DNA of 64,000 nt from Alphaproteobacteria bacterium (GCA_965232515.1 CBDDPY010000002.1:4256001-4320000); one strand, 5' to 3'; shown: positions 24,859-45,852, counted from the stretch's first letter. A program made the numbers and translations. Notes: generated by a model not told the origin, from the sequence alone.

Positions 24859-25656
24859 ATGACGAAACCCATGCTACGGCCGCTTGTCGGCATCAGCTGC
24901 AACCGGCAGGACGGCGACGAGGCCGGTTATCCGCGCCACGTGTCGAGCGAGAAATATATCGAGGCCGTGATCGACGCCGCCGGCGCTATGCCGGTGCTGC
25001 TGCCGGCGTTGGGCAACACGGCAGATATCGACGCGCTGCTGCATCGCCTGGATGGCATCGTGCTGACGGGCGGGGTCTCGAACGTCGAGCCACACCACTA
25101 TGACGGACCGCCGAGCCGCGACGGCACGCCACACGACCCGCACCGCGACGGCCTGACCCTGCGGCTGATCCGCGCCGCCATCGATGCCCATGTGCCGGTG
25201 CTGGGCATCTGCCGCGGCATCCAGGAGATGAACGTCGCCTTCGGCGGCAGCCTGCATCAGTATCTGCACGAGGTGCCGGGCCGGTTCGACCACCGGCGCG
25301 AGCGGCACAAGCCGCTGGACGAGCAACTGGCGCCAAGGCACAAGATCAGCCTGACGCCGGGCGGGCAGCTGGCCGAGCTGCTGAACGCGACCGAGGTCGT
25401 GGTCAACTCGCTGCATGGCCAGGGCATCGACCGGGTCGGCGACGGGCTGACGGTGGAGGCCGTGGCCGAGGACGGCACCATCGAGGCGCTAAGCCTGACC
25501 GACCGCAGCCGGTTCGCGCTGGGCGTGCAGTGGCACGCCGAGTGGCAGGCCGTGGAGACGCCGGTGCATGCCGCGATCTTCGGCGCGTTCGGCGACGCGG
25601 TCGGCACGTTCGCCGCGACACGGTCGGGTCATGGCCGACGTATCGAAGTGGCTTAA
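24859..25656 (+). CDS. puuD: Gamma-glutamyl-gamma-aminobutyrate hydrolase (peptidase C26)
   Basis: LGICRGIQEMNV, VNSLHGQG, GVQWHAE. Confidence 0.85.
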   Translation: MTKPMLRPLVGISCNRQDGDEAGYPRHVSSEKYIEAVIDAAGAMPVLLPALGNTADIDALLHRLDGIVLTGGVSNVEPHHYDGPPSRDGTPHDPHRDGLTLRLIRAAIDAHVPVLGICRGIQEMNVAFGGSLHQYLHEVPGRFDHRRERHKPLDEQLAPRHKISLTPGGQLAELLNATEVVVNSLHGQGIDRVGDGLTVEAVAEDGTIEALSLTDRSRFALGVQWHAEWQAVETPVHAAIFGAFGDAVGTFAATRSGHGRRIEVA

Positions 25657-26971
25657 GGACCGCCGCGTCACCGAGGTCGAATGCGTGGTGCCGGACCTGT
25701 CCGGCGTCGCCCGCGGCAAGATCCTGCCGACCGCGAAGTTCCGCCAGAGCCTGAAGGACGGCTCGCTGCGCCTGCCGGAAAGCGTGTTCGCGCAGACCGT
25801 GACCGGCGCCTTCGCGCCGTCCGACGTGATCGACCCGACCGAGCCCGACGTGATCCTGGCGCCGGACGCCGGCAGCATCCGCCTGGTGCCGTGGTACGAG
25901 GAGCCGACGGCGCTGGTGATCAACGATTGTCGATACCGCGACGGTGGCCCGGTGCCGTTCGCGCCGCGCCAGGTGCTGCGGCAGGTGCTGGCGGCCTACG
26001 AGAAACGTGGCTGGCGGCCAGTGGTGGCGCCCGAGCTGGAGTTCTTTCTTGTCGCCCGCAACGTCGATCCGGACTATCCGCTGGAGCCGCCGCTCGGCCG
26101 CTCGGGCCGGCCGGAGACCGGCAGCCAGTCCTACGGCATCGACGCGGTCAACGAATTCGATCCGATCTTCGAGGAGGTCTACGACTTCTGCGAGGCGCAA
26201 GAGATCGACATCGACACGCTGATCCACGAGGCCGGCTCGGCCCAGGTCGAGATCAACTTCAACCACGGCGACGCGCTGGCCATGGCCGACCAGGCCTTTC
26301 TGTTCAAGCGCGCCGTGCGCGAGGCGGCGCTGCGGCACGAGATCTACGCAACCTTCATGGCGAAGCCGATCGAGCGTCAGCCCGGCAGCGCCATGCACAT
26401 CCACCAGAGCGTGGTCGACGCGAAGACTGGGCGCAATCTTTTCGCCGGCAAGAGCGGCAAGAACACCAAGCTGTTCGAGGCGCATATCGCCGGCCTGCAG
26501 CGCTATCTGCCGGCGGCGATGCCGCTGGTGGCGCCGAACGTGAATTCCTATCGCCGGCTGGTGCCGGGCCTGGCGGCGCCGATCAACCTGCATTGGGGCG
26601 TCGAGAACCGCACCGCCGGCCTGCGCGTGCCGCACGGCAACGGCGAATCGCGGCGGGTCGAGAACCGGGTGCCCGGCGCTGACGCCAATCCCTATCTCGC
26701 CATCGCCGCCAGCCTGGCCTGCGGCTATCTGGGCATGGTCGAGGGATTGCGCCCGACCGCGCCGATGCAGCGCAGCGCGTACGAGCTGAAGTTCGCGCTG
26801 CCGCGCTATCTGCCGGACGCGCTCGCCAAGCTGCGCGCCAGCCGCGAGCTGCGCGCGCTGTTCGGCGAGGATTTCGTCAGCCTGCTGCTGGACGTGAAAG
26901 AGGCCGAGCTCAACGGCTACCAGAACGTCATCAGCGCCTGGGAACGCGAGCACCTGTTGCTGAACGTCTGA
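25631..26971 (+). CDS. Glutamine synthetase family gamma-glutamyl-amine ligase (PuuA/PauA-like)
   Basis: PDLSGVARGK, APELEFFL, HEAGSAQVEIN, FMAKP...GSAMHIHQS, RVENRVPGADANPY. Confidence 0.9.
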   Translation: MADVSKWLKDRRVTEVECVVPDLSGVARGKILPTAKFRQSLKDGSLRLPESVFAQTVTGAFAPSDVIDPTEPDVILAPDAGSIRLVPWYEEPTALVINDCRYRDGGPVPFAPRQVLRQVLAAYEKRGWRPVVAPELEFFLVARNVDPDYPLEPPLGRSGRPETGSQSYGIDAVNEFDPIFEEVYDFCEAQEIDIDTLIHEAGSAQVEINFNHGDALAMADQAFLFKRAVREAALRHEIYATFMAKPIERQPGSAMHIHQSVVDAKTGRNLFAGKSGKNTKLFEAHIAGLQRYLPAAMPLVAPNVNSYRRLVPGLAAPINLHWGVENRTAGLRVPHGNGESRRVENRVPGADANPYLAIAASLACGYLGMVEGLRPTAPMQRSAYELKFALPRYLPDALAKLRASRELRALFGEDFVSLLLDVKEAELNGYQNVISAWEREHLLLNV

Positions 26972-26981: not shown

Positions 26982-28010
26982 TTAGCCCTGGGGATCTTCC
27001 AGGCGGAAGCGGCGCAACGTCATCGACGGCGGTTCGCCGTAGCGGGCCTTGTAGGCGGCGGCGAACTTGCTGAGGTGATCGAAGCCGCAATCGGTGGCGA
27101 CGTCGGTGACGCCGCGGCCGACGCGGCCCGCCTCCATCAGGTCCCGCCGCGCCATGTCGAGCCGGACCTGCTTGAGATAGGCCATGGGCGACGCGCCGAC
27201 ATGACGCTGAAAGGCCTTGTGCAGAGTCCGCGGCCGGACGCCGGCGGCGGCCGCGATCTCGGGCAGGCGTAGCGGCCGGCGGGCGTTGACCTTGATGAAG
27301 TCCTCGGCGCGCGACAGGTAGTCCGGCCGCGGCGCGCGGGCGCCGGCGATGCGCGCGTCCTCGGAATGCGGCAGGCAGGTCAGCAGCAGCTCGGCGAACA
27401 CCTGGCCCACCCGGTCGGCCATGCCGGGATGGGCCCAGCCGACGCCGCCCGCCCGCGCATCGGCGCAGACCGCGCGCAGGAACTGGAACAGGCTGGCGCT
27501 GCGCGACGTCTCCGTGACGACGCCGGGGCCGAAGCGCGCGAGCGGCAGCACGGCCGCAGCAGCCGGTCGGGCGAGCGCGGCGACGGCGTCGTCGATCAGC
27601 GTGCGGTCGGCCCGGACGATGAGCTGCGTGCAGGCGGCGTCCCAGAACTTCTCGTAGGCGCGGTCGGGATTGATGACGTAGAGGCTGCCGGCGGCGGCGA
27701 GGTCGCTGCCATCCCCGTGTTCGTAGCGCGCCGTGCCGGCGAGCGTCCACTGCACCAGATAGAAGTCGCGTAGCGGCGGAATGCCGATGCGGGTCTCGGC
27801 GCCGTAGGTCAGATGGTTGACGGAGAGCGCGCCGACCGTGGCGTGCGAATGCCGGAAGCCGGCGCAGGCCGCGTCCGCCGTGTCGAGCGCGTGCGAGCGG
27901 AAGAAGCGCGAGACATGCCGGCGTGCCGCCGCGCCCGAGGCCACCTCCGGCACCGCGCCGGAGTCGAACATGGCGGGCGCATTCGGGACGGCGTTGAACC
28001 CCTCTTCCAT
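26982..28010 (-). CDS. AraC family transcriptional regulator
   Basis: C-terminal HTH VTDVATDCGFDHLSKFAAAYKARYGEPPS. Confidence 0.92.
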   Translation of the reverse strand: MEEGFNAVPNAPAMFDSGAVPEVASGAAARRHVSRFFRSHALDTADAACAGFRHSHATVGALSVNHLTYGAETRIGIPPLRDFYLVQWTLAGTARYEHGDGSDLAAAGSLYVINPDRAYEKFWDAACTQLIVRADRTLIDDAVAALARPAAAAVLPLARFGPGVVTETSRSASLFQFLRAVCADARAGGVGWAHPGMADRVGQVFAELLLTCLPHSEDARIAGARAPRPDYLSRAEDFIKVNARRPLRLPEIAAAAGVRPRTLHKAFQRHVGASPMAYLKQVRLDMARRDLMEAGRVGRGVTDVATDCGFDHLSKFAAAYKARYGEPPSMTLRRFRLEDPQG

Positions 28011-28120
28011 TGCAAAGCTCTGTTGTTAGCCAAGGCCGATTCAGGCTAGCCGGGCGCTCCGGGGCTAGTCAGGTCTCAGCCTAGCGGCCAAGATGGCGAC
28101 GTCAATGGGAGGGTCGGCGC

Positions 28121-29173
28121 ATGGATGCCGCGGATGTGAAGGCGATCGCCACGGAGCTCGGCGCCGATCTGGTCGGCATCGCCAGCGCCGAGACGCTGAA
28201 CGCCTTTCCGCCCGATCCGCGCTGGCCGCAGACGCCGGAACGGATCTCGCCGCACTGCAAAAGCGTGATCGTCATCGTCAGCCGCATTCCGGTCGCCGCG
28301 TTCCGGGCCAAGTCGAACGTCGCGGTGCAGTACATGGACATGATGGTGTTGCGGCGCATGGACGTGATCGCCCACCGGCTGGCGGAAGCGCTGGAGCGCG
28401 AGGGCCATCCGTCCTTCGTGACGGCGGCGCAGGAGACCGACTGGGACTACAAGAACGCCAGTTACGGCCGGCTGTCGACACGGCACCTCGGCATCGAGGC
28501 GGGCATCGGCACCTTCGGGTTGGAGGTGAACATCCTGACGCCAGAGTTCGGGCCGCGCATCTATCTGACCGGCATCCTGACCGAACTGGAGCTCGAGCCC
28601 GACGAACGCATCACCGAGCAGGTCTGCATCGGCGAGTCCTGCTCGCGCTGCCTCTATTCCTGCCCGACCGACGCCGTGCGGCATTTCGGCATCGACAAGC
28701 GCGCCTGCGCGCAGGAGGCGCAGGAGTTCGGCTTCATGACGTCGCTGTCGGTGCTGGAGGAATTCATCGAGACCGACGATCCGTCCCGGCGCAAGGAGAT
28801 CATCGCCAGCCGCGACATCTATGGCTTCTGGCAGGGGCTGCTGCGCGTCGTCGGCTCGTTCGGCGACTGTCCGCGCTGTCTCGCCGTCTGTCCGGTCGGC
28901 AACGACTACCATGCCTATCTGGCCGGACCGCAGAAGCAGATCCCGGAGAAGACGCCCGAGAAGGTCGCGAAGGCCAAGGGCTTCAAGGACGCGCGCAAGT
29001 CGGGCGCCGATGTCACCGGGCTGAACGACTGGAACATCCGCTGGGTCGGCGAGGACGGCTATCAGGGCCTGGTGGCGCGGCAGCTTCAGGCCTTCAAGCA
29101 GCTACAGCGCGACCGGCAGGCCGCCTATGAGCGACGCGTCGCCGCGGCCGACACCAACGACTCCGGGGACTGA
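28121..29173 (+). CDS. QueG/reductive dehalogenase-like 4Fe-4S protein A
   Basis: LGADLVGIA, AGIGTFG...LTPEFGPRI, CxxxxCxxCxxxCP and CxxCxxxCP. Confidence 0.8.
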   Translation: MDAADVKAIATELGADLVGIASAETLNAFPPDPRWPQTPERISPHCKSVIVIVSRIPVAAFRAKSNVAVQYMDMMVLRRMDVIAHRLAEALEREGHPSFVTAAQETDWDYKNASYGRLSTRHLGIEAGIGTFGLEVNILTPEFGPRIYLTGILTELELEPDERITEQVCIGESCSRCLYSCPTDAVRHFGIDKRACAQEAQEFGFMTSLSVLEEFIETDDPSRRKEIIASRDIYGFWQGLLRVVGSFGDCPRCLAVCPVGNDYHAYLAGPQKQIPEKTPEKVAKAKGFKDARKSGADVTGLNDWNIRWVGEDGYQGLVARQLQAFKQLQRDRQAAYERRVAAADTNDSGD

Positions 29174-29178
29174 GGCGC

Positions 29179-30183
29179 ATGGTCGAGGTCTTCCAGGAAC
29201 CGATCACGGCCGAGGCGATCAAGGCGAAGGTGCGCGACCTCGGCGCCGACCTCGTCGGCATCGCCGACGGCGAGGTACTGAACCAGAACCCGCCGGACCC
29301 GGCGAACCCGAAACGCCCCAGCGACATCACCGACCACGATGCGGGGCGCGTGATCGTCATCGCCAAGCGGCTGACCGCCGGCACGACGCGGCTCACGCGC
29401 TGGGACGAGCGGCACAAATACTACAACGACGAACTGGTGCTGAACGCGCTCGAGATGCTCTCGCTGGAGCTGGTGCTGTGGCTCGAGGACCGTGGCTATC
29501 CGGCGTTGATCGTGCCGCCGACCCACGTCGATCCGTTGGATTATCAAGGCGATCCCGGTGCCTCATTGGGGCAGATCCTGTCGCTCGAGCATGCCGCGGT
29601 CGAGGCCGGCCTCGGCACGCTGGGCCTGAACCAGATGCTGCTGACGCCGGAATTCGGTCCGCGCGTGCGGCTGACGGCGGTGCTGTCGTCGGTGCCGGTC
29701 GACTGCGACGAACGCATGACCGAGAGCCTGTGCCGGGGACCCGGCTGCGGGCGCTGCCTCAGCGCCTGCCCCGGCGACGTGATCGGGCATTGGGACCGCG
29801 ACTGGGAAGCCTGCGATACCTACCGCTCGCCGCACGGCTTCCACGCGCTCGCCGACCATATCGGCCGCATCATCGACGAGCCGGATGTGGCCAAGAAGAA
29901 GGCCATGCTGCGCTCGGAGGATCAGTTCTACATCTGGCAGAGCATCCTGCGCGGAGCCGGCGTAGTGACCGGCTGCCGGCGCTGCCAGGACGTCTGTCCG
30001 GTCGGCGACGATTACGCGGCGTTGGCCGACGCGCTCGACGCGATCCCGGAGGACAGCAACGACAAACGCGCCCGCCTCGCGGCCATGCTCGCCGACGAGG
30101 CCGAGGGCGCCCTGCCCGCCAGCTACCTCGCCGCTCAACGCTGGATCGGCGCGCTCACTGGGCCGGACGACGGGGGGACATGA
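29179..30183 (+). CDS. QueG/reductive dehalogenase-like 4Fe-4S protein B
   Basis: LGADLVGIA, HAAVEAGLGTLG...LTPEFGPRVRL, CxxxxCxxCxxxCP and CxxCxxxCP. Confidence 0.8.
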   Translation: MVEVFQEPITAEAIKAKVRDLGADLVGIADGEVLNQNPPDPANPKRPSDITDHDAGRVIVIAKRLTAGTTRLTRWDERHKYYNDELVLNALEMLSLELVLWLEDRGYPALIVPPTHVDPLDYQGDPGASLGQILSLEHAAVEAGLGTLGLNQMLLTPEFGPRVRLTAVLSSVPVDCDERMTESLCRGPGCGRCLSACPGDVIGHWDRDWEACDTYRSPHGFHALADHIGRIIDEPDVAKKKAMLRSEDQFYIWQSILRGAGVVTGCRRCQDVCPVGDDYAALADALDAIPEDSNDKRARLAAMLADEAEGALPASYLAAQRWIGALTGPDDGGT

Positions 30184-30187
30184 CGCG

Positions 30188-31480
30188 ATGGACACCGAGT
30201 CGTTGATGCTGCCGAAATCGGCCGAGGAGTTGGCCGCGTTGCAGTCCGCGCGCAAGCGGGCCGCGGTCGAGCGGGCGCGGACCTCGCGGTTCTGGGCCGA
30301 CAAGCTCGCCGACATCGACCTCGACCGGCTGGACGAGCCTGACGAATGGCGGCGCATCCCGATCCTGACGAAAGAGCAGCTGCGCGAGATCAGCATGGAG
30401 GCGTTCTACAGCGACTTCTGCATCGCCGGACGGCGCGAGACCAGCGAGTTCTGGCGCTCGGGCGGCTCGACCGGACGGCCGCTGTTCTATCCGCGCACCA
30501 CCGAGGATTTGGCCTACGCCATGGTCGGCTTCCGCCGGGTCTATGCCTGCGCCGGCGTCGGGGTAGACGACCTGGTGCACCTGTCGCTGCCGCTCGGCAT
30601 CCATCCGGCCGGACATCTATGCGCCCGGGCGGCGGAGCGCGAGGGCGCGGCGGTGATGTGGGTCGGGGCCGGCAACGCCGCGCCGTCGGCGATGCAGCTC
30701 GACCTCATCCGCAACTTCCGGCCCTCGGTCTGGGTCGGCATGTCGAGCTACGCCATCCATCTCGCCAACCTCGCCGCCGCCGAGGGCGAGAAGCCGGCCG
30801 ACCACGGCGTCGAAAAAATCATCTGCACGGCCGAGCCGCTGTCGGACGCGAAGCGCGCCAAGCTGTCCGAGCTCTGGGGCGCTCAGGTCTTCGATTCCAT
30901 CGGCATGACCGAGATGATGATGATGGGCGCCGAGACTGCGCCGGGCAGCGGCTTCCGGATCTGGTCGGACTTCGTCTATCCCGAGGTGATCGACGCCGAC
31001 AGCGGCGCGCCGGTGGCGCCCGGCGAGGAAGGCCTGCTGGTGGTGACGTCGCTGGCGACCAACAACGCGACGCCGTTCCTGCGCTGGAACACCGGCGACA
31101 TCGTGCGGCTGACCGAGCCCGACGGCGATGGCACGGGTTTCGATCTGTTTCCGGTCATGCGCCACGCCCACCGCACGGCCGGCTTCTTCAAGGTGCGCGG
31201 CGTCAATATCGGCCACAACGACCTGGAGGACATGATGTTCGCGAACGCCGATGTCGGCGACTTCCGGGTCGAAGCCGCGGCCACGGACGGCCGCGACGTC
31301 CTGCTGCTCTACCTGGAAGCCCGCACCGGTGCCGATGCCGATGCGCTCGGCGTCACGATTGCGGCCGACGTGCAGCGCTCCTTCGGCCTCACGCCGGATC
31401 TGGTCTGGTGCGAGCCCGGCGCCATCGCCAAGACTTTCGAGCAGTCCGTCAAGGCGACGCGTTTCATCGACACGCGGTGA
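30188..31480 (+). CDS. Phenylacetate-CoA ligase (PaaK) family adenylate-forming enzyme
   Basis: IPILTKEQLR, SGGSTGRP, IGMTE, PFLRWNTGD, FKVRGVNI. Confidence 0.85.
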   Translation: MDTESLMLPKSAEELAALQSARKRAAVERARTSRFWADKLADIDLDRLDEPDEWRRIPILTKEQLREISMEAFYSDFCIAGRRETSEFWRSGGSTGRPLFYPRTTEDLAYAMVGFRRVYACAGVGVDDLVHLSLPLGIHPAGHLCARAAEREGAAVMWVGAGNAAPSAMQLDLIRNFRPSVWVGMSSYAIHLANLAAAEGEKPADHGVEKIICTAEPLSDAKRAKLSELWGAQVFDSIGMTEMMMMGAETAPGSGFRIWSDFVYPEVIDADSGAPVAPGEEGLLVVTSLATNNATPFLRWNTGDIVRLTEPDGDGTGFDLFPVMRHAHRTAGFFKVRGVNIGHNDLEDMMFANADVGDFRVEAAATDGRDVLLLYLEARTGADADALGVTIAADVQRSFGLTPDLVWCEPGAIAKTFEQSVKATRFIDTR

Positions 31481-31484
31481 GCCG

Positions 31485-31877
31485 TTAGTCCGCCTCTGAT
31501 TGCCGAAACACCGGGCGTCGCAAGGCAAAGCCGAGCAACAGCCAAGGCAGCGCAAGCGCGACCGTCGGCAGGATCGACGGAATTTCTTGAAACGTGCCAG
31601 ACCAGAGCGCCCAGGCCGATCCCGCGGCAAGCACCACCGCGTAGACCACGCCGACAATCTTCGTTGTGGCCGTCGCCAGACGCTCGTCGACGAACTTGAT
31701 CAGGCCAAGCTGGCACAGCACGGCGCCGACGCTCCCTTGGACAAAACTGTAGATGCATCCGGCGATCAGCGAGCCGTAGAACGGTTTGCCGAGAAGCAGG
31801 TAGATGGCCGCCATCGCATAGTGCACGACCAAGATGCTCATGAAGGCCGCGATGAACCCAATGGCGAAGCGCTTCAT
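31485..31877 (-). CDS. Hypothetical four-TM membrane protein
   Basis: Four hydrophobic segments; start ATG 31877 or TTG 31892. Confidence 0.6.
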   Translation of the reverse strand: MKRFAIGFIAAFMSILVVHYAMAAIYLLLGKPFYGSLIAGCIYSFVQGSVGAVLCQLGLIKFVDERLATATTKIVGVVYAVVLAAGSAWALWSGTFQEIPSILPTVALALPWLLLGFALRRPVFRQSEAD

Positions 31878-31888
31878 GAGACCGGCCC

Positions 31889-32317
31889 TCAACTCGCCAG
31901 CAGCTTCTGCAAACGCGCGCGGACATCCGCCGGGGGCTCGGCGCTGGCGGGGCCGTGCATGAAGACGACGACGGATTCGGCGGTGGCGAGGCAGTGGCCG
32001 TCGTTGAAGACGCCGCTGCCGACGGTGAAGCTGGTGCGGCCGACGCGGACGACACGGGCGCCGATGCGGAGCGCGCCGGGCCAGTGCGCTTCGCGCAGAT
32101 AGTTGATGGTGATGCGGGCGACGACGATGCGGTCGTCGGGGCCGCGGTGGGGCCGGATCTCGCGCACGAAGGCGACGCGGCCGGATTCGAAATAGGCGGC
32201 GAACGCGGTGTTGTTGACATGGCCGCCGGCGTCCTGGTCGGAGAAGCGGATGGTGTCGTCGACCCAGAAGGCGTAGGTGCCGGGGTCGGCAAGGTCGAAG
32301 TTGCTGTCGCTGGTCAT
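31889..32317 (-). CDS. Acyl-CoA thioesterase (4HBT family)
   Basis: IRFSDQDAGGHVNN...YFESGR. Confidence 0.9.
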   Translation of the reverse strand: MTSDSNFDLADPGTYAFWVDDTIRFSDQDAGGHVNNTAFAAYFESGRVAFVREIRPHRGPDDRIVVARITINYLREAHWPGALRIGARVVRVGRTSFTVGSGVFNDGHCLATAESVVVFMHGPASAEPPADVRARLQKLLAS

Positions 32318-32341
32318 GGCGTACTCACTCGGTCAGGACGG

Positions 32342-32776
32342 TCATTTCTTGGCGCGGAAGTAGCGGTGGCATTCGGAACAGGTGCGGGTGAGCGCCAGGA
32401 AGGCGCCCGCGGCGGTGGCGCCGTCCCGGCGTTCGGCAGCGGCGGCGAGGTCGGCGCCGTGGGATTCGAGGGCGCGGGCACGCTTTTCGAATTCGGGCCA
32501 ATAGGACCAGACCTCCGGCTGGGCCCGGCTGGGCGGCGTGAGGCTGCCGGCCGGGAACAGGGCCAGGAACTGACCGGACTCCCGATGCAGACGCGTTGCC
32601 TCGGCCGCTACCACGTCGATCCGCAATTCGGTCTGGCCGTTGAACATCGGCGCCATGACTTTCATGGCCTCGCCAATGGATTTCATCAGGTCGATGCGCT
32701 GGCGGACGACGTCATCGGCAGCGGCGGGAACGGCGAGCATCGACGCCAACAGGATGGAGACTGTCAGCCGACGCAT
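32342..32776 (-). CDS. Cytochrome c' / c556 (class II)
   Basis: Signal peptide, RIDLMK, SRAQPEVW, C-terminal CSECH. Confidence 0.88.
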   Translation of the reverse strand: MRRLTVSILLASMLAVPAAADDVVRQRIDLMKSIGEAMKVMAPMFNGQTELRIDVVAAEATRLHRESGQFLALFPAGSLTPPSRAQPEVWSYWPEFEKRARALESHGADLAAAAERRDGATAAGAFLALTRTCSECHRYFRAKK

Positions 32777-33210
32777 CAACGGGTGTCGGCGATACGGCGC
32801 AGCAGGCGGCGCAGCGTTTCCTGCTCGTCGGCGGTGAGGTCGGCGGCGATGCGTGCCTCGTGCCGGCGGACGAGCGGCCGGAGCGTCGCCACCAGGCGCG
32901 CGCCCTCCGGCGACAGGCGCAGGGCGTAGGAGCGGCGGTCGGTCGGCGACGGCGCCCGCTCGACGAGACCCCGGTCCTCGAGCCGGTCGATCACCGCGAC
33001 CACGGTCGAGCGGTCGATGCCGATGGCGTTGCCGAGCTGGGTCTGATTCAGGCCGGTATTGGCCTCGATGAGCGTCAGCACGCCGAATTGGCCCGGCGTC
33101 ACGTCGTGCTCGGCCATCGAGGTCATGAAATCGTTGAATACCCGGTCCTGCGCACGCCGCAGGTTGTAGCCGATCAGCTCGGGCAGCAGGCCATAATCGA
33201 ACTCGCTCAT
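32776..33210 (-). CDS. MarR family regulator
   Basis: LIGYNLRRAQ...IDRSTVVAVIDRLEDRGLVER...DRRSYALRLS. Confidence 0.92.
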   Translation of the reverse strand: MSEFDYGLLPELIGYNLRRAQDRVFNDFMTSMAEHDVTPGQFGVLTLIEANTGLNQTQLGNAIGIDRSTVVAVIDRLEDRGLVERAPSPTDRRSYALRLSPEGARLVATLRPLVRRHEARIAADLTADEQETLRRLLRRIADTR

Positions 33211-33233
33211 ACGGTATTCCCGGCCGCTCGAAA

Positions 33234-33311
33234 TATTGTTGGGGTACCAAACATTTTTCTTGCCAAGCCCGTTCCCGCCACCTAGGTTATTGTTGGGGAT
33301 GCAAGCAATAA
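33234..33311. promoter_or_regulatory. Two putative MarR operators
   Basis: TATTGTTGGGGTACCAAACATTT and TTATTGTTGGGGATGCAAGCAATAA: shared 11-mer, imperfect palindromes. Confidence 0.6.
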
Positions 33312-33324
33312 ACCGGATGGGACG

Positions 33325-34353
33325 GTGACGCACAAGGTTTGGGTCCGTCAGGCCGATCAGACGATCGAAGTAGCCGACGGCGACACGATACTGAACGCCG
33401 CGCTAACTGCCGGCATCGATTACCCCTTTGGCTGCCAGTCGGGCAATTGTGGGGCCTGCAAGTCGCGGCTGCTGGAGGGAAGCGTCGAGATGCTGCCCTA
33501 TTCCGAATACGCGCTGACCGATGAGGAGAAGGCCCAAGGCCTGATCCTGGCCTGTCAGTCGATGCCGGAAGCGGACTGCCGCGTCGGCTGGCTGGACCTT
33601 GACGAGACCGTGCAGCATCCGCTGCGCAAGCTCGACTGCAAGGTCGTGGCCTGCGAGAAGGCGACGCACGACATCACCGTCGTGCGGCTCGACATCGAGG
33701 CCGGCGGACCGTTCAGCTTCAGCGCCGGGCAATACGCCTCGGTGACGTTTCCGGGCCAGGCGCCACGCGACTATTCCATGGCCAGCCGGCCCGAGGACGC
33801 GCAGATCGAATTCCATATCCGCGCCATGGACGGCGGCTCGGTCAGCCACTACGTCAACGAGCAGCTGAAGGTCGGCGATGCGGTGCGGGTCGAAGGGCCG
33901 ATGGGCCTTGCTTACCTGCGCGAGCAGCATACAGGGCCAATCCTGGCCGTCGCGGGCGGCTCGGGCCTGGCGCCGATCAAGTCCATCGTCGAGGAGGCGC
34001 TGGGCAAGGGCATGGGCCAGCCGATCGCGATGTATTTCGGCGTGCGCGGCGAACGGGACCTCTATCTGGAAGAGCACTTCAAGGCGTTGGCGAAGGCACA
34101 CGCGAACTTCGACTTCACGCCCGTGCTGTCCGAGCCGAACGGCGCCACGGACCGGCGTACCGGGTTCCTGGCGGACGCGGTGGCCGCGGACTTCCAGGAC
34201 CTCGACGGCTTCAAGCTCTACATGGCCGGACCGCCGGTGATGGTCGACACGACGACGGCGGCCTGCACGCCGCTGGGCCTGCGGTCGGAGGACCTGCACG
34301 CCGATCCGTTCTATTCCGCGCACGAGTTGGCGGAACAGGGAGCGGCCACATGA
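33325..34353 (+). CDS. 2Fe-2S ferredoxin-NAD(P)H reductase (oxygenase reductase)
   Basis: CQSGNCGAC...LACQ, RDYSMAS, AGGSGLAP, YMAGPPVMV. Confidence 0.92.
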   Translation: MTHKVWVRQADQTIEVADGDTILNAALTAGIDYPFGCQSGNCGACKSRLLEGSVEMLPYSEYALTDEEKAQGLILACQSMPEADCRVGWLDLDETVQHPLRKLDCKVVACEKATHDITVVRLDIEAGGPFSFSAGQYASVTFPGQAPRDYSMASRPEDAQIEFHIRAMDGGSVSHYVNEQLKVGDAVRVEGPMGLAYLREQHTGPILAVAGGSGLAPIKSIVEEALGKGMGQPIAMYFGVRGERDLYLEEHFKALAKAHANFDFTPVLSEPNGATDRRTGFLADAVAADFQDLDGFKLYMAGPPVMVDTTTAACTPLGLRSEDLHADPFYSAHELAEQGAAT

Positions 34354-35297
34354 GCGCCGACGAACTCGCCGGCCGCGTGGCGCTGGTGACGGGCGCCGGC
34401 CGCGGCGTTGGCCGCGCCATCGCCGAGAGCCTGGGCGCACGCGGCGCGTCCGTGGTGGTCGCCGACAGCGGCACCGGCATTTCTGGCGACGGCGCCGATC
34501 CCGGCGTAGCGCAGGAGGTGGCGACAGCAATCGGCGACAACGCCGCGGCGTTCACGGAGTCGGTGGCGAGCCCCGGCGCGGCGAAAGCCGCGGTCGAGCT
34601 GGCGGTCAGCCGTTTCGGCGGGCTCGACATTCTGGTCAACAACGCCGCCATCCTGCGCGACGCGTTCGTCTTCAAGGCCGATCCCGGCGACTACGAGGCT
34701 GTGATCCGCAACAACCTGTCGGCCGCCTTTTTCCTGATGAACGCAGGCACGCCTGTCATGCGTGAGCAGGCCAAGGCCGGCCGCGGCGGCGGCGATAGCT
34801 ACGACTGGGGCCGCATCGTCAACATCGTCTCCAGCGCCGGGCTCTACGGCAATCTGGGCCAGAGCGGCTATGCCAGCGCCAAGGCGGGCCTCGTCGGCCT
34901 GACCCGGGTCGCGGCCATGGACCTGGCGCGCGCCGGCATCACCGTCAACGCCGTGGCGCCGTTCGCGGCGACGCGCGTAACCGAGATCATCCAGCCGGCG
35001 AACGATGCGCAGGCCGCCTACAAGGAACGCGCGCTGAAAATCCCGGCGAGCCACGTGGCTGACGTGGTCGCCTATCTGGCCTCGCCGGCGGCGCAGTCCG
35101 TCACCGGCCAGATCTTCGGCGTGCGCGGCCGCGAGGTGTTCCTGTTCTCGCAGCCGCGGCCGGTGGCGCGCATCGTCAACGACGGCGGCCCGTGGGACAC
35201 TGACAGCCTGGCCGCGGCCGTGAACGCCGAGTTCGCTGGTTCCTTCACCGACCTGACCACCGACCTGGAAGCCTTCAACACCGAGCCTGAGATCTGA
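34350..35297 (+). CDS. SDR family oxidoreductase
   Basis: TGAGRGVG, NNAAILRD, YASAK. Confidence 0.92.
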   Translation: MSADELAGRVALVTGAGRGVGRAIAESLGARGASVVVADSGTGISGDGADPGVAQEVATAIGDNAAAFTESVASPGAAKAAVELAVSRFGGLDILVNNAAILRDAFVFKADPGDYEAVIRNNLSAAFFLMNAGTPVMREQAKAGRGGGDSYDWGRIVNIVSSAGLYGNLGQSGYASAKAGLVGLTRVAAMDLARAGITVNAVAPFAATRVTEIIQPANDAQAAYKERALKIPASHVADVVAYLASPAAQSVTGQIFGVRGREVFLFSQPRPVARIVNDGGPWDTDSLAAAVNAEFAGSFTDLTTDLEAFNTEPEI

Positions 35298-35311
35298 CCA
35301 AGGGGTCCATC

Positions 35312-36028
35312 ATGAGCCAAGCCGAGAAGTTCGAAGTCAAGACCGTCGACGAGCTGCACGCCCAGCCCGACGAATACCAGACGATGATCAAGAAGATCGT
35401 CGTCAGCCACGCCGTGAACGAACTCTACGGCGCCCAGGCCTTCGACGAGCCGGCCATCGCATTGGCGCCGACGCCGTACGACAAGTGGCTCGCCTGCCGC
35501 ATCGCCATGGAGGAGTACGGCCACCACGTGCGCTTCCGCGAGCTGGGCGACGAGATGGGCGTGGCGCGCGAGGAGATGACGCCCGAGCAGAAACAGCCGC
35601 TGTCGATCTTCGAGTTCCCGCTGAAGACCTGGGCCGAGTTCTGCGTCATCAAGCTGCTGGCGGATCTGGCCGAGATCCTGCAGGTCGAGGATCTGGTCCA
35701 CTGCAGCTATCTGCCGCTGCGCCGTCTGGCGCGGATGACCATGCCCGAGGAGCGTTTCCACGCCCAGTTCGGCAAGGACACCTGCAGCGACCTGTGCAAA
35801 ACCGAGGAAGGCCGTGAGGCCGTGCAGGCGGCGATCGACGAGTATTTCCCCTACCTGCCGCCGTTCTTCGGCCGGGCCAAATCGAAGAACAACGAGCTCT
35901 ATCGCAAATGGGGCATCAAGCTGCGGACCAACGAAGACATGCGCGAGGACTATCTGCGCCGCGCACGCGAGCTGGTCGAGGACGAGCTGGGCCTGAAGCT
36001 GCCGGACGTCGAACTGGAAGCAGCCTAG
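35312..36028 (+). CDS. PaaA/PaaC-like ferritin-fold diiron protein (aryl-CoA oxygenase)
   Basis: NELYG, EEYGH and EERFH diiron ligands; YRKWGIKLRTNEDMR. Confidence 0.75.
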   Translation: MSQAEKFEVKTVDELHAQPDEYQTMIKKIVVSHAVNELYGAQAFDEPAIALAPTPYDKWLACRIAMEEYGHHVRFRELGDEMGVAREEMTPEQKQPLSIFEFPLKTWAEFCVIKLLADLAEILQVEDLVHCSYLPLRRLARMTMPEERFHAQFGKDTCSDLCKTEEGREAVQAAIDEYFPYLPPFFGRAKSKNNELYRKWGIKLRTNEDMREDYLRRARELVEDELGLKLPDVELEAA

Positions 36029-36066
36029 CGTCGCGGGCTAAGCTCAGTCCAACGGGAGGACGTGCC

Positions 36067-37119
36067 ATGACCGACGCCGCCACCGAGCAGACCACATCCG
36101 AAACGCGTCAGGAATTCTACGACCGCATCGACGGCGACAACCTGGCGCCGTTGTGGGAGGTGATGAAGAACCTGATCACGCCGGAGCCGAAGACGCCGGT
36201 GCGGCCGGCGGTCTGGCACTATGACGAGATCCGGCCCTACATCATCGAGTCGGGCGAGCTGATCACGGCCAAGGAGGCCGAGCGCCGGGTGCTGATCCTG
36301 GAGAACCCGGGCCTGCGCGGCCAGTCGAAGATCACGCATACGCTCTATGCCGGCCTGCAGCTGATCCTGCCAGGCGAGGTGGCGCCGGCGCACCGGCACA
36401 GTCAGAGCGCGCTCAGGTTCGTGGTCGAGGGCGAAGGCGCCTATACCGCGGTCGACGGCGAGAAGACCATAATGCGGCCGGGCGATTTCGTGATCACACC
36501 GTCCTGGACCTGGCACGACCACGGCAACGAGTCGGACCAGCCGATGGTCTGGCTCGACGGCCTGGACATTCCCATTGTCGGCATGCTGGACGCCGGTTTT
36601 GCCGAAGGCATGGCGCAGGACAGCCAGCCGTTGTCCCGGCCCGAGGGCGACGCGCTGGCGCGCTATGGCTCGGGCCTGCTGCCGGTCGGCTACGAGAACA
36701 CGGCGCCGACTTCACCGGTGTTCAACTATCCCTACGAACGCACGCGCGAAGCACTGGAGCAGATGCGCCGGGCCGAGGAATGGGACGAATGCCACGGCCT
36801 GAAGATGCGCTACGTGAATCCGGTGACCGGCGAGTTCGCCATGCCGACCATGGGCACGTTCATGCAGCTGCTGCCGAAGCACTTCAACACGGCCTCATAT
36901 CGCTCGACCGACAGCATGGTCTATTCCGTGGTCGAGGGCCGCGGCCGGACCGTTGTGGAGGGCGAGATGCTGCACTGGGGACCGCGCGACGTGTTCGTGG
37001 TGCCGAGCTGGCAGCGCCATCACCACGAGCCCGACGAGGACGCCGTGCTGTTCAGCTTCTCCGACCGGCCGGTGCAGCAGAAGCTGGGCCTCTGGCGCGA
37101 GGACCGGGGCAACCATTGA
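36067..37119 (+). CDS. gtdA: Gentisate 1,2-dioxygenase
   Basis: EAERRVLILENPG, PGEVAPAHRHSQSALRF, TPSWTWHDH, WLDGLDIP. Confidence 0.95.
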   Translation: MTDAATEQTTSETRQEFYDRIDGDNLAPLWEVMKNLITPEPKTPVRPAVWHYDEIRPYIIESGELITAKEAERRVLILENPGLRGQSKITHTLYAGLQLILPGEVAPAHRHSQSALRFVVEGEGAYTAVDGEKTIMRPGDFVITPSWTWHDHGNESDQPMVWLDGLDIPIVGMLDAGFAEGMAQDSQPLSRPEGDALARYGSGLLPVGYENTAPTSPVFNYPYERTREALEQMRRAEEWDECHGLKMRYVNPVTGEFAMPTMGTFMQLLPKHFNTASYRSTDSMVYSVVEGRGRTVVEGEMLHWGPRDVFVVPSWQRHHHEPDEDAVLFSFSDRPVQQKLGLWREDRGNH

Positions 37120-37156
37120 TGCCCTTCCCGTCTCTGCCGTTGCCGCGTTGAGGCCG

Positions 37157-37747
37157 ATGTCGGACCGCGATTCCGAGCTGGACGAGGCTGAGCTCAGCGA
37201 CTTCCCCGGCGTCGCCGCGGCCTCGCAGTTCGCCAAAATGGTGGCGAGCGTGCCGTGGTTCGCAAGCCTCGGCAACGAGCTCGACGACGACGAGATCGAC
37301 TGGGCCGACGCCTATCTCGCCAATCTCGGCTTTCCCGACGCGCATGCCGTGCTGATCGACAGTTGGGAGGACGCCGAGGCCGCAGCGCGCAATCCCGACT
37401 GGAACACCGAGTGGTGGGAAGCGGAAGAACAGATGCGCATGGCGCTGATCTCGGAAGCCTGCGCGCTGGCTGGCGAGGACCGGGTGATGGTGGCGCTGAC
37501 CAACGTCACCAACCAGGTCTCGGACGTGGCGCACGGCGCCGCGGCGGTGGCGGCCGCGCATGCCCGCATCGCCGACGAGGCGCTGATCCGCGCCGCCGCC
37601 GGCGCGGCGACGCAGGCCTGCTATCAGGCCGCGCTGGTACTTGCGGCCGAAGGCGATGAAGAGCATCCTTTCGCCCTGAAGTACCGCCTGTTCGAGAACG
37701 GCCGCTGGCCGTTGAGCGTGGTCGGCAACAGCTTCAATCTTTTCTGA
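37157..37747 (+). CDS. Hypothetical acidic helical protein
   Basis: 196 aa, host-like codon usage; HPFALKYRLFENGRWPL. Confidence 0.75.
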   Translation: MSDRDSELDEAELSDFPGVAAASQFAKMVASVPWFASLGNELDDDEIDWADAYLANLGFPDAHAVLIDSWEDAEAAARNPDWNTEWWEAEEQMRMALISEACALAGEDRVMVALTNVTNQVSDVAHGAAAVAAAHARIADEALIRAAAGAATQACYQAALVLAAEGDEEHPFALKYRLFENGRWPLSVVGNSFNLF

Positions 37748-37769
37748 CTATCCAGCATCAGGGGCAGAA

Positions 37770-38456
37770 ATGAGTTACGTCATTCCCGAACCGCCGCGCG
37801 CGACGGTGCCGGTCGCCGGCAGCGCCCATACCTTTCCGGTGCGCCGGATCTATTGCGTCGGCCGCAACTACGCGGCGCACGCGCGCGAGATGGGCTTCGA
37901 CCCGGACCGCGAGCCGCCGTTCTTCTTCACCAAGCCGGCCGACGCCATCGTGCCCGACGGCTCGGTGCTGGACTATCCGATGGCGACCGAGAACCTGCAC
38001 CACGAGATCGAGCTGGTCGTCGCCATCGGCACCGGCGGCAGCAACATCGCCGAGGACATGGCGCTGGAGCATGTCTACGGCTACGCCGTCGGCCTCGATA
38101 TGACCCGCCGCGACCAGCAGATCGCCGCGCGTGAGAAGGGCCGGCCCTGGTGTGTCGGCAAGGCCTTCGACCATTCGGCGCCGATCAGCGAGATCCGGCC
38201 GGCGGCCGAGATCGGCCATCCGAGCAACGCCCGCATCTGGCTGGACGTGAACGGCGAGACGCGCCAGGACAGCAACCTGACGCACCTGATCTGGAACATT
38301 CCCGAGACCATCGCATACCTGTCGGGCCTGTTCCAATTGGAGCCGGGCGACCTGATCTATTCGGGCACGCCCGAAGGCGTCGGCGCGGTCGGTGCCGGCG
38401 ACAAGCTCTCGGGCGGCGTCGACGGCGTCGGCACGCTCGACGTCAGCTATCGCTAG
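37770..38456 (+). CDS. Fumarylacetoacetate hydrolase family protein (fumarylpyruvate hydrolase-like)
   Basis: RRIYCVGRNYAAHAREMG, HHEIELVV, DMTRRD, GTPEGVG. Confidence 0.92.
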   Translation: MSYVIPEPPRATVPVAGSAHTFPVRRIYCVGRNYAAHAREMGFDPDREPPFFFTKPADAIVPDGSVLDYPMATENLHHEIELVVAIGTGGSNIAEDMALEHVYGYAVGLDMTRRDQQIAAREKGRPWCVGKAFDHSAPISEIRPAAEIGHPSNARIWLDVNGETRQDSNLTHLIWNIPETIAYLSGLFQLEPGDLIYSGTPEGVGAVGAGDKLSGGVDGVGTLDVSYR

Positions 38457-40842: not shown

Positions 40843-42084
40843 TCAGCCCTTCACGCAGACCACCTGCTTCAGCGTGTGGACCACGTCGACCAGGTCGGTC
40901 TGGGCGGCCATGACGGCGTCGATGTCCTTGTAGGCCATCGGCGTCTCGTCGATGACACCCGTGTCCTTGCGGCATTCGACGCCCTCGGTGGCGGCGATGT
41001 GGTCCGCCTCCGTGAAGCGCCGCTTGGCCTCGGCCCGCGACATGGCGCGGCCGGCCCCGTGCGAGCACGACAGGAAGGCATCCGCGTTGCCCTTGCCGCG
41101 CACGATGTAGGACCGCACCCCCATGCTGCCCGGAATGATGCCGAGCTCGCCGTCGCCGGCGCGCACGGCCCCCTTGCGGGTGACCCAGACCCGGGCGCCG
41201 AAATGTTCCTCGCGGGCGACGTAGTTGTGGTGACAGTTGACCGCCACCTCGCCCACGCGGAAGTCCGTGAACGTCTCGGCCATGACCTCGAGGATCCGGG
41301 CCATCATGCATTCGCGGTTCGCCCGCGCGAAGGCCTGGGCCCAGCCGACCGCCTTGACGTAGTCGTTGAAGCCCTCGGTGCCCTCCGGCAGGTAGGCGAG
41401 ATCGGCGTCCGGCAGCCGGATGAACCAGCGCTCCATCTCGCGCTTGGCGCGCTCGATGAAATAGCTGCCGATGCGGTTGCCGATGCCGCGCGAGCCCGAG
41501 TGCAGCATCACCCACACCCGATCCGCTTGGTCGAGGCAGACCTCGACGAAGTGGTTGCCGGTGCCGAGCGTGCCCAGGTGATGCACGCTGTTGGCCTTGG
41601 CGAGCTTCGGGTGCTTCTCGGTTAGCGCCTTGAGCCCGGTCTCGAGCGTACCGTCGCGGTAAGGCGTGTCGCGCCATGCCGAGGCCACAACATCCGGCAC
41701 ATCGGTCCAGGCGCCGGCGTCGCGGCGGCGGTCACCCTTGCCGGTACGGCCATGCGGCACCGCGGCCTCGATGCCCGCGCGCAGGTCCGACAGGCTGTCG
41801 GGCAGGGCCTGCGAGGTCAGGCTGGTCTGCACCGCCATCATGCCGCAGCCGATGTCGACGCCGACCGCGGCCGGGATGATCGCGGCCTTGAGCGGGATCA
41901 CGCTACCGACGGTGGCGCCCATGCCCCAGTGCACGTCCGGCATCGCGGCGACATGCTTGTGCACGAACGGCAGGCTGGCAACGTTGCGGAGCTGCTTCAG
42001 CGCCGCATCTTCCACCGGCACGCCCTTGGTCCAGGCCTTGATCGGCGCGCCGCCTTCGGTCTCGATGTACTCGTACCCACTCAT
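40843..42084 (-). CDS. rtcB: RNA ligase RtcB
   Basis: MPDVH, DIGCGM, GNHFVE, HSGSRG, HHNY, RKGA, PGSMG, SHGAGR, DETPMAYK. Confidence 0.97.
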   Translation of the reverse strand: MSGYEYIETEGGAPIKAWTKGVPVEDAALKQLRNVASLPFVHKHVAAMPDVHWGMGATVGSVIPLKAAIIPAAVGVDIGCGMMAVQTSLTSQALPDSLSDLRAGIEAAVPHGRTGKGDRRRDAGAWTDVPDVVASAWRDTPYRDGTLETGLKALTEKHPKLAKANSVHHLGTLGTGNHFVEVCLDQADRVWVMLHSGSRGIGNRIGSYFIERAKREMERWFIRLPDADLAYLPEGTEGFNDYVKAVGWAQAFARANRECMMARILEVMAETFTDFRVGEVAVNCHHNYVAREEHFGARVWVTRKGAVRAGDGELGIIPGSMGVRSYIVRGKGNADAFLSCSHGAGRAMSRAEAKRRFTEADHIAATEGVECRKDTGVIDETPMAYKDIDAVMAAQTDLVDVVHTLKQVVCVKG

Positions 42085-44049: not shown

Positions 44050-44287
44050 GTCATGTCCTCCGATCCGACGCGTTGGCTTCGCGCCATACTGACAGCGAGC
44101 ATCGTCGGTTCAATTACGTCCGAGGTAGGCGCGGACGGCAAGACAGCATTCACGGCAACTTGCGATGGGCGCCGGACTGCGCGAGCATTGATCCCGGCGA
44201 AATCGCCAGCTCGGCGAATCCCTTAGAGAACCGAATGACAAATGGCCGACGCACCGATGGCCGAAATGGAAGGGAGGTCCAGACATT

Positions 44288-45839: not shown

Positions 45840-45852
45840 CGGCGGCGCGAAC

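Follow-up and report, generated by a model that had tools for sequence, protein, structure and literature searches.

A module of three genes, encoding two paralogous iron-sulfur proteins (FeS1 and FeS2) and a PaaK-like acid-coenzyme A (CoA) ligase, was analyzed in a stretch of 64,000 nucleotides (nt) from an Alphaproteobacteria bacterium (GCA_965232515.1, CBDDPY010000002.1:4256001-4320000), which is referred to below as the window. The module probably constitutes a new family among the class III B12-type reductases, with an aryl-CoA as its substrate. In the scheme that we favor, for and against which the evidence is about evenly balanced, the ligase would make an aryl-CoA, and an FeS1/FeS2 heterodimer would reduce it by two electrons at a corrinoid of FeS1, with removal of a ring substituent. 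The superfamily of these proteins is known; the family, its unequal two-subunit architecture, and its coupling to a ligase are new. A preliminary description, made from the sequence alone, had reported four genes between positions 26982 and 31480 of the window. All four were located there, and the shared motifs, the ligase, and the divergent AraC-type gene were confirmed. The features are as follows.

26982..28010, minus strand: AraC-family regulator of 342 amino acids (aa) with AraC_binding_2 and HTH_18 domains; AndR-like; divergent from the operon
28011..28120: intergenic region of 110 nt between the AraC gene and FeS1, with a GGCTAG direct repeat; candidate operator
28121..29173, plus strand: FeS1, 350 aa, QueG/RdhA-fold protein with two [4Fe-4S] clusters; proposed catalytic, probably corrinoid-binding subunit
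29179..30183, plus strand: FeS2, 334 aa, diverged paralogue with two [4Fe-4S] clusters; proposed to be a partner or electron-transfer subunit whose active site has degenerated
30188..31480, plus strand: PaaK-like adenylate-forming acid-CoA ligase, 430 aa, with AMP-binding and AMP-binding_C_2 domains

Because the gaps between FeS1 and FeS2 (5 nt) and between FeS2 and the ligase gene (4 nt) on the plus strand are so short, the three genes look co-transcribed. The G+C content of the operon region is high (about 0.67-0.70). A consensus scan of positions 27900-32400 returned 0 sigma-70-like promoter sites, and the 2 terminator-like sites found there, against 1.9 expected, are uninformative.

When one genome per species was scanned, 335 pattern matches were obtained, 267 of which were confirmed as relatives; all locus counts given below refer to the best 80 of these 267. 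The 80 loci are mostly from Alphaproteobacteria, among them Amorphus coralli DSM 19760 and Tateyamaria sp. ANG-S1, and many of the carriers are marine. Identity to the window copy across the loci was 72-86% for FeS1, 60-78% for FeS2, and 47-70% for the ligase. FeS2 directly follows FeS1 in all 75 loci with room for it (at least 1100 nt), including two (L050 and L058) in which FeS2 overlaps the end of FeS1 by a few bases; the automatic count was 73. In 69 of the 72 loci with room, the ligase gene comes after FeS2 on the same strand. In two of the three exceptions (L011 and L046) a ligase gene lies within 8 kb on the other strand, and in the third (L040) there is none. The conservation of the three-gene linkage, on which the preliminary description had made its reading depend, was thus borne out, and because the arrangement recurs in almost every related locus, it is far beyond chance.

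In a word-indexed protein search, 8000 candidates were scored, and 2502 of them had E≤0.001. The 120 matches listed were 75-100% identical and carried the names 'hypothetical', 'ferredoxin', or 'epoxyqueuosine reductase QueG'. Look-alikes in the ESM Atlas likewise fell only into 'hypothetical', 'ferredoxin', and 'epoxyqueuosine reductase family' clusters. When FeS1 was compared by tblastn with 72,556 plasmid records, no copy of the module was found. Five distant matches (24-34% identity) were obtained, two of them annotated as queG, one without an annotated feature, and two within SCP2 sterol-binding domain genes. No characterized member was found in the Atlas or in the full-text literature (subscription-only papers aside), in agreement with the earlier statement that no characterized example of this arrangement is known.

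FeS1 and FeS2 share 37% identity across 299 residues (E 2e-58). They have in common the motifs LGADLVGIA and EAG(I/L)GT(F/L)GL...LTPEFGPR and eight Cys residues, which are C169, C174, C177, C181, C196, C250, C253, and C257 in FeS1, with equivalents in FeS2. All eight are invariant in the 81 FeS1 and 75 FeS2 orthologues (window included), and both proteins therefore carry the eight Cys expected for the two [4Fe-4S] clusters of class III cobalamin-dependent Fe-S reductases. In the parts of PMC4646009 and PMC5175355 available to us, class III B12 enzymes are described as a nitroreductase-type module with base-off cobalamin followed by two [4Fe-4S] clusters, and QueG, RdhA, and MMACHC are described as B12 binders. 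Pfam gave weak Fer4 matches to FeS1 and FeS2 and nothing else. In a phmmer search of the PDB sequences, QueG (5d08) matched FeS1 with an E value of 7e-11, and the only significant PDB sequence matches of the two proteins were QueG and PceA-type dehalogenases. AlphaFold2 models built from custom alignments had predicted local distance difference test (pLDDT) values of 93.6 for FeS1 and 91.3 for FeS2, and both contain a nitroreductase-type, putatively cobalamin-binding module followed by a ferredoxin-like module. The Foldseek matches listed from the PDB at E≤0.001 were only QueG, PceA, NpRdhA, and MMACHC/CblC for FeS1, and only RdhA, QueG, and MMACHC for FeS2, the RdhA structures being the best; E values to NpRdhA ranged from 9e-8 to 2e-9 across both models. 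As judged from these matches and models, both paralogues have the QueG/RdhA fold that had been assigned to them. No twin-arginine motif was found at the N-terminus of FeS1 or FeS2 and no small membrane gene is conserved with the module, so that the view of two cytoplasmic proteins without a twin-arginine translocation (Tat) signal or membrane anchor could be retained.

The formation of a heterodimer by FeS1 and FeS2, which the preliminary description had suggested and for which it had proposed complex modeling, is well supported because of the constant adjacency of the two genes, the existence of fusions, and a complex model above its controls. An exhaustive search of cluster representatives gave 2138 proteins at E≤0.001. 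Among the best 150 of these were two FeS1-FeS2 fusions in gene order, P0121 (670 aa) and P0122 (678 aa), whose N-terminal halves are 52-54% identical to FeS1 and whose C-terminal halves are 47-49% identical to FeS2. Proteins with two or three tandem modules (P0208, P0216, and P0224) occur among the more distant relatives. The FeS1/FeS2 complex model scored 0.69, compared with 0.00 for the best of three controls. Of 157 solved complexes, 116 reach this mark, as do 2 of 215 mismatched pairs; these counts hold only roughly here since custom alignments were used. The runs agreed in at least 91% of contacts with a partner pLDDT of at least 89, and the modeled interface would include contacts between the C-terminal helix of FeS1 and FeS2. 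A quick tree of 72 rows was built from the window and 12 of the 80 loci (both subunits), four fusion halves, 38 full-length single-module representatives, and four outgroup proteins of the reductive dehalogenase (RDH) family. In the Shimodaira-Hasegawa-like approximate likelihood ratio test (SH-aLRT), the FeS1 clade had a support of 88 and the FeS2 clade of 98; the two are sisters (94) and are nested within the single-module family. The same sub-topologies appeared in both clades (window with L001, L011 with L046, L037 with L066, and L014 with L071), and these matching subtrees also argue for the pair.

The two subunits appear to be unequal. Residues were counted in alignment columns over the 81 FeS1 and 75 FeS2 sequences, and equivalences with QueG were read from a sequence alignment with QueG 5d08, not from a coordinate superposition. 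R121 of FeS1, which is invariant (81/81), aligns with QueG Arg141, the residue that sits beneath the corrin according to the available part of PMC5175355. Opposite the Asp134 loop of QueG, FeS1 has the invariant A113-S114-Y115-G116, with S114 at the place of Asp134. H122 and Y148 are also invariant, and the stretch T101-W108 is invariant or nearly so. At the GPRIY position FeS1 has Tyr, as does QueG (GSYVY), whereas PceA has Arg305 there. In the 75 FeS2 sequences, the position equivalent to R121 varies (Pro in 18, Asp in 17, and Asn in 14), as does the position equivalent to Y148 (Met in 36, Leu in 21, and Ile in 12), and the FeS2 branches in the 72-row tree are about twice as long as the FeS1 branches. 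Because FeS2 has lost the corrin-Arg and catalytic-loop positions of QueG that are kept in FeS1, FeS1 looks like the catalytic subunit, and FeS2 would be a structural or electron-relay partner. In line with its Arg at the QueG Arg141 position, FeS1 may be the subunit that binds the corrinoid.

Neither protein falls within the QueG or RDH families as they are currently modeled. The QueG model TIGR00276 was the top NCBIfam match of both, with 49.8 bits for FeS1 (model positions 129-207 of 337) and 38.3 bits for FeS2 (positions 136-196) against a cut-off of 200, and the RDH model TIGR02486 gave 32.2 and 27.7 bits, respectively, against a cut-off of 160.35. The NCBIfam matches span about 60-80 residues, namely the AG-G--G...PEFGPR core and the first cluster motif. 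Pfam DUF1730 had no match in FeS1 or FeS2, and in the QueG family model there was no match beyond the first cluster motif, where the C-terminal tRNA-binding helical domain would lie. I-A-H and S114 are aligned with the catalytic D-Y-H motif and Asp134 of QueG. The hallmarks of RdhA, a Tat signal together with an RdhB anchor or a fused reductase, are also missing from these proteins of 350 and 334 aa, which contain no reductase domain.

A quick IQ-TREE phylogeny of 48 rows was built from eight FeS1 and eight FeS2 proteins, four fusion halves, 22 single-module relatives, four RDH-family proteins, and two QueG proteins; fragments shorter than 250 aa and tandem-module proteins were omitted and no bootstraps were calculated. 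The QueG rows were two annotated Firmicutes proteins, from Bacillus thuringiensis and Latilactobacillus curvatus, taken from the plasmid collection. This pair lay on a branch of length 2.9 among distant single-module relatives. Its distance to every family member exceeded 3.8 substitutions per site, and branches with SH-aLRT values of 95-99 separated it from FeS1/FeS2. No canonical queG gene was found within the 64-kb window. The scores far below the cut-off and the separate branching of the two annotated QueG proteins, a comparison that the preliminary description had called for, support its view that FeS1 and FeS2 are not true QueG.

The ligase matched Pfam AMP-binding and AMP-binding_C_2 and the PDB entry of PaaK (2y27, E 1.4e-30). 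Its scores were 139.9 bits on the PaaK model TIGR02155 (cut-off 646.3), 164.8 bits on the haloarchaeal PaaK model (cut-off 700), and 103.8 bits on the BagE/FevW model. By these scores the ligase belongs to the PaaK-like fold family and is not a PaaK equivalog; it would form a CoA ester.

The regulator matched PF14525 (87.5 bits) and PF12833 (83.5 bits). Its best match was the AndR model NF041686, which it covered at nearly full length (model positions 29-334) with 164.8 bits against a cut-off of 350, and it may thus be called AndR-like but not AndR. AndR is an anthranilate-responsive regulator of anthranilate dioxygenase. A 60%-identical regulator orthologue occupies the same divergent position in Amorphus coralli (L001), and in seven more loci an AndR-like AraC gene of 33-34% identity is found upstream, in the orientation of the module. 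In the intergenic region, GGCTAG occurs as a direct repeat at 28044-28049 and 28063-28068, 19 nt apart. The block bearing the repeat is kept in the orthologous region of Amorphus coralli, and the repeat is a candidate AraC operator. The operon had been called AraC-controlled; this description may suit the window, where a divergent AraC gene is present, but it does not extend to the module at large, since an AraC gene adjoins it in only 8 of the 80 loci. LysR, MarR, or TetR genes flank the module in other loci.

All open reading frames (ORFs) of the 80 loci were clustered, and the cluster representatives were scanned against family models. Beyond the three core genes, no neighbor was universal. 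Recurrent ones included a Liv-type ABC ATPase (16 loci); an enoyl-CoA hydratase (14 loci) resembling oxepin-CoA hydrolase and PaaG (below the cut-offs in both cases, at 153 and 122 bits); a 538-aa enzyme of the benzoate-CoA ligase family (14 loci; TIGR02262, 349 bits against 375); and an acyl-CoA dehydrogenase (10 loci). AndR-like AraC regulators were present in 8 loci; kynureninase in 7 (TIGR01814, cut-off 246; L079 and L080, the two scanned, scored 311 and 315 bits); an RDH-family protein within 8 kb in 7; an old yellow enzyme-type flavoenzyme, FadB, and a family III CoA-transferase in 5 each; a 4HBT_2 thioesterase unrelated to that of the window in 4; an FAD mono-oxygenase similar to 3-hydroxybenzoate 6-hydroxylase in 4; and arylformamidase (287 bits against 223), BenE, and a Rieske pair similar to benzoate/anthranilate dioxygenase in 3 each. 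A cytoplasmic transglutaminase-core protein (PF01841) of about 255 aa is often found between BenE or AraC and FeS1, for example at 7207-7971 in L038 and at 5986-6786 in L029. In L029, the genes for this protein, AraC, FeS1, FeS2, the ligase, arylformamidase, kynureninase, and malate synthase A lie on one strand; 16 nt separate the ligase and arylformamidase genes, and the arylformamidase and kynureninase genes overlap. The genes for aromatic-acid and CoA metabolism around these variable flanks support the earlier assignment to catabolism rather than to tRNA modification. The tie to kynurenine and anthranilate holds for one sub-clade only.

Several further features lie downstream of the module in the window.

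31485..31892, minus strand: membrane ORF of 135 aa; no family match
31889..32317, minus strand: 4HBT-fold acyl-CoA thioesterase (Pfam 4HBT_2 59.8 bits, 4HBT 57 bits); context, outside the conserved core
32776..38456: gentisate-type cluster of MarR, BenC-like reductase, short-chain dehydrogenase/reductase (SDR), PaaA-like di-iron protein, gentisate 1,2-dioxygenase (GDO), and FAH-family hydrolase; context only

The membrane ORF was considered as an RdhB-like anchor and rejected, as it had no tblastn match (at least 60% query coverage, E≤1e-10) in the 80 loci. A gene for cytochrome c' is also among the window neighbors. GDO scored 585 bits on TIGR02272 (cut-off 442), the BenC-like reductase 216 bits on NF040810, and the di-iron protein 102 bits on PaaA_PaaC; the FAH-family protein is encoded at 37770-38456. 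At 33325-36028, directly upstream of GDO, the BenC-like ferredoxin reductase, the SDR, and the 238-aa PaaA/PaaC-family di-iron protein could make up a route to gentisate through a di-iron aryl-CoA hydroxylase. In none of the 80 loci was the PaaA-like gene found close to the module. A GDO homologue (41-42% identity) occurs within 8 kb of the module only in L011 and L046. The gene order in L011 is FAH, GDO, MarR, FeS1, FeS2, RDH-family gene, TRAP transporter genes, ligase, and thioesterase, and that in L046 is GDO, flavin reductase, ligase, TetR, FeS1, FeS2, RDH-family gene, and a 767-aa fusion of FAD_binding_3 and Oxidored_FMN. The proposal that the module feeds a gentisate route therefore holds in part: a gentisate cluster accompanies the module in the window and in these two loci, but with a GDO homologue in only 2 of the 80 loci, gentisate linkage was rejected as a general property. 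The link is real for this lineage and is not a property of the module. In the same two loci, both of the Roseobacter group, the RDH-family gene directly follows FeS2 (10015-11406 in L011, with a 4-nt overlap, and 10047-11405 in L046). The representative of this RDH-family cluster, from L016, scored 202 bits on TIGR02486 (cut-off 160), and this placement suggests a functional tie between the FeS1/FeS2 pair and catabolic RdhA homologues.

From these observations, a working scheme can be drawn for the module. FeS1, FeS2, and the ligase would form the core of a self-contained catabolic module, beside an AraC regulator here. The PaaK-type ligase would activate an aromatic carboxylic acid as the CoA thioester. 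A soluble FeS1/FeS2 heterodimer with four [4Fe-4S] clusters in all would then carry out a two-electron reduction of the aryl-CoA, FeS1 holding a base-off corrinoid beside its proximal cluster, an arrangement known from class III B12 enzymes. FeS2, in which both clusters are kept and the active-site positions are lost, would probably stabilize FeS1 and relay electrons. Because the module encodes no reductase, the electrons would come from a general low-potential ferredoxin or flavodoxin. The likeliest chemistry would be the reductive removal of an amino, hydroxyl, or halogen substituent from an ortho-substituted benzoyl-CoA. Kynureninase releases anthranilate, and because of the kynureninase operons and the AndR-like regulators in the window and seven loci, anthraniloyl-CoA would be the best single candidate, the substrate and the reaction being read from gene context. 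Cleavage of its aromatic C-N bond would yield benzoyl-CoA or a hydroxybenzoyl-CoA. The more specific proposal that FeS1/FeS2 is the gene-orphan reductive deaminase of 2-aminobenzoyl-CoA (anthraniloyl-CoA), heterodimeric and dependent on a corrinoid and [4Fe-4S] clusters, is quite unlikely in our estimate.

A number of observations weigh against the aryl-CoA reductase scheme. TM-scores of both models to solved structures were only 0.37-0.53. The QueG D-Y-H motif stands opposite I83-A84-H85 of FeS1, and the conserved Tyr above the corrin (QueG Tyr101/105, PceA Tyr246) was not located by alignment; the invariant Y115 and Y148 are the FeS1 candidates for it, taken from the alignment with no superposition. 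We know of no precedent for reductive C-N cleavage by a corrinoid. PceA crystallizes as a homodimer, and the result for the FeS1/FeS2 complex may partly reflect likeness to dimeric relatives. Some enzymes of the PaaK-like family make esters or amides instead of CoA esters, and 14 loci already have the second, benzoate-CoA-ligase-type ligase beside the module, which makes the role of the PaaK-like one less certain. A GTP cyclohydrolase II gene lies next to the module in 13 loci and a transglutaminase-like gene in 12. As the neighborhoods differ between loci, a single substrate for the whole family is unproven. No cobalamin riboswitch or other RNA element was detected in the whole window by Rfam at gathering thresholds, which returned only the tRNA at 12360-12431, and no B12 genes are present in the 64 kb. 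Finally, according to the available part of PMC4646009, no sequence motif is diagnostic of B12 in class III enzymes.

Two other readings of the pair, each unlikely in our view, have to be weighed most seriously. In the first, the pair would be a catabolic reductive dehalogenase in the manner of NpRdhA/BhbA, acting on natural halogenated aromatic acids as such or as their CoA esters, and the ligase and a thioesterase would give a CoA-dependent route like the 4-chlorobenzoate pathway. The Foldseek matches of both proteins to RdhA structures, including NpRdhA, agree with this reading, as do the RDH-family genes within 8 kb in 7 loci and directly after FeS2 in two of them, the many marine carriers, and the 4HBT thioesterases near the module in four loci and the window. 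However, the TIGR02486 scores of FeS1 and FeS2 are far below 160, the module lies in a kynurenine operon in seven loci, where no halogen is expected, and no haloacid-specific gene is conserved. The presence of a separate true RDH beside the pair also suggests that the pair has a different job.

In the second, whose probability we put equally low, the pair would be free of corrinoid and would act as a plain iron-sulfur (or flavin) oxidoreductase, or as an electron-transfer pair for neighboring enzymes. Nitroreductases bind flavin. The class has no B12 motif, and its cobalamin module is a nitroreductase-type fold (PMC4646009, in its available part); FeS2 has already lost the positions matching QueG Arg141 and FeS1 Tyr148, and databases name members of the family 'ferredoxin'. 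However, no flavoprotein was among the Foldseek matches listed at E≤0.001, and what accompanies the module is a ligase rather than any fixed redox partner. Because FeS1 is 72-86% identical in distant Alphaproteobacteria and contains long invariant stretches outside the cluster motifs, a catalytic pocket fits better than a carrier.

A decidedly unlikely third reading is that the pair performs QueG chemistry, reducing epoxides of the 1,2-epoxyphenylacetyl-CoA or 2,3-epoxybenzoyl-CoA type back to the aromatic CoA ester for detoxification or salvage. It would account for QueG being the closest solved relative of FeS1, for the Tyr at the GPRIY position, for the PaaK-like ligase, for the PaaA-like di-iron oxygenase and reductase 2-5 kb away in the window, and for the adjoining enoyl-CoA hydratases resembling oxepin-CoA hydrolase and PaaG below the cut-offs. 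However, Ser replaces QueG Asp134 in FeS1, the D-Y-H motif is absent, no paa/box oxygenase was found among the scanned clusters occurring in at least 4 of the 80 loci, and the PaaA-like gene is near the module in none of the 80. That the proteins are QueG paralogues reducing epoxyqueuosine in tRNA, as several databases annotate, and as the homologues named 'epoxyqueuosine reductase QueG' and the rank of TIGR00276 as top NCBIfam match might suggest, is highly implausible given their low scores and partial coverage on that model, the lack of DUF1730, Asp134, and D-Y-H, the distance of the two QueG proteins in the tree, and the location of the genes in a catabolic operon with a CoA ligase.

Some other parts of the window were also annotated. 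Upstream of the AraC gene, positions 24859-26971 encode an amidotransferase similar to gamma-glutamyl-GABA hydrolase (199 bits against 266) and a glutamine synthetase-like protein (195 bits against 650 on the gamma-glutamylputrescine synthetase model). Amidotransferase/synthetase pairs of this kind serve polyamine use, and also the gamma-glutamylation of arylamines such as aniline. On the minus strand, positions 40843-42084 encode an RNA ligase of the RtcB family. At 42522-43481, also on the minus strand, is a second, very diverged bicupin with weak similarity to gentisate and 5-aminosalicylate dioxygenases (64 and 47 bits). It is adjoined by genes for a PaaI-like hotdog thioesterase and a TRAP transporter (43642-47142), and these genes may form another small aromatic-acid locus. 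Positions 1-12431 have a lower G+C content (0.53-0.63 against about 0.67-0.70) and contain large plus-strand ORFs of 470, 471, and 857 aa without a Pfam family, weak small-terminase matches at 8910-9356 (PF03592, 25 bits) and 9671-10096 (PF20901, 23 bits), and, at the end, a tRNA on the minus strand (12360-12431). This region looks like a prophage remnant or a tRNA-inserted island.

In 2015, class III B12 enzymes comprised reductive dehalogenases and QueG only, and further families without a motif were predicted (PMC4646009, in the part available). With its 267 confirmed relatives, the module described here is a concrete and widespread candidate for such a family. It is distinct in three ways: its paralogous subunits are unequal, its coupling to an acid-CoA ligase appears obligate, and its settings are catabolic, including tryptophan/kynurenine operons. 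If the aryl-CoA reductase scheme is true, corrinoid chemistry would be extended to aryl-CoA, the names 'QueG' and 'ferredoxin' on the homologues would be corrected, and the module may supply the missing gene for a reductive step in the breakdown of aromatic amines or acids. If the deaminase proposal is also true, Alphaproteobacteria could route tryptophan-derived anthranilate into CoA-dependent or gentisate pathways. Besides dehalogenation and epoxide reduction, class III B12 enzymes would then have a third reaction type, and the enzyme would be the first of the class to act on a CoA thioester and to form a catalytic/pseudo-catalytic pair. Cultured carriers such as Amorphus coralli DSM 19760 and Tateyamaria sp. 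ANG-S1 make the question directly testable.

The module can be compared with several known systems. With QueG (PDB 5d08 and 5d6s), FeS1 and FeS2 share an N-terminal nitroreductase-type module followed by a module with two [4Fe-4S] clusters and the same eight-Cys logic, the AG-G--G...PE(F/Y)G core, a cytoplasmic location, and, in FeS1, the Arg at the Arg141 position. They differ in having a CoA ligase gene and catabolic genes as neighbors, and in that they probably pair, whereas QueG is monomeric (PMC5175355, in its available part). With NpRdhA/BhbA and PceA (PDB 4ras, 6zxx, 4uqu, and 8q4h) they share the fold and the layout of the redox chain. NpRdhA is a soluble enzyme that tolerates oxygen and has a substituted hydroxybenzoate as its substrate, according to the PDB titles and the abstract of PMC10463259. 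Unlike NpRdhA, the window proteins are about half its length and have no fused reductase; in contrast to RdhA, they have no Tat signal or RdhB anchor, their pair is predicted to be heterodimeric, and the presumed substrate is a CoA thioester.

The anaerobic reductive deamination of 2- and 4-aminobenzoyl-CoA to benzoyl-CoA resembles the proposed reaction in that a substituent is removed by two electrons from a ligase-formed aryl-CoA. Reductive deamination of aminobenzoyl-CoA has been described for Azoarcus evansii and Desulfatiglans anilini (PMC4539516 and PMC7500099). Molybdenum enzymes like 4-hydroxybenzoyl-CoA reductase are the candidates proposed for 4-aminobenzoyl-CoA (PMC7500099), and the available portions of these two papers name no gene for the 2-amino enzyme. 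The module differs from these systems in that most of its carriers look aerobic, and the link is drawn from the kynurenine-operon context only. CoA-dependent pathways of the 'activate, transform, hydrolyse' type also have a ligase followed by an aryl-CoA enzyme, as would the module, near which a 4HBT thioesterase and genes of the gentisate route lie in the window, L011, and L046. The FcbABC pathway for 4-chlorobenzoate and the Sdg conversion of salicylate to gentisate via salicylyl-CoA are comparable CoA-dependent pathways. An aerobic 2-aminobenzoyl-CoA pathway is described in the part of PMC4539516 available to us. The transforming step of these CoA-dependent pathways is catalyzed by a crotonase-type dehalogenase or by a flavin mono-oxygenase, whereas here it would fall to an Fe-S pair of the QueG/RdhA fold.

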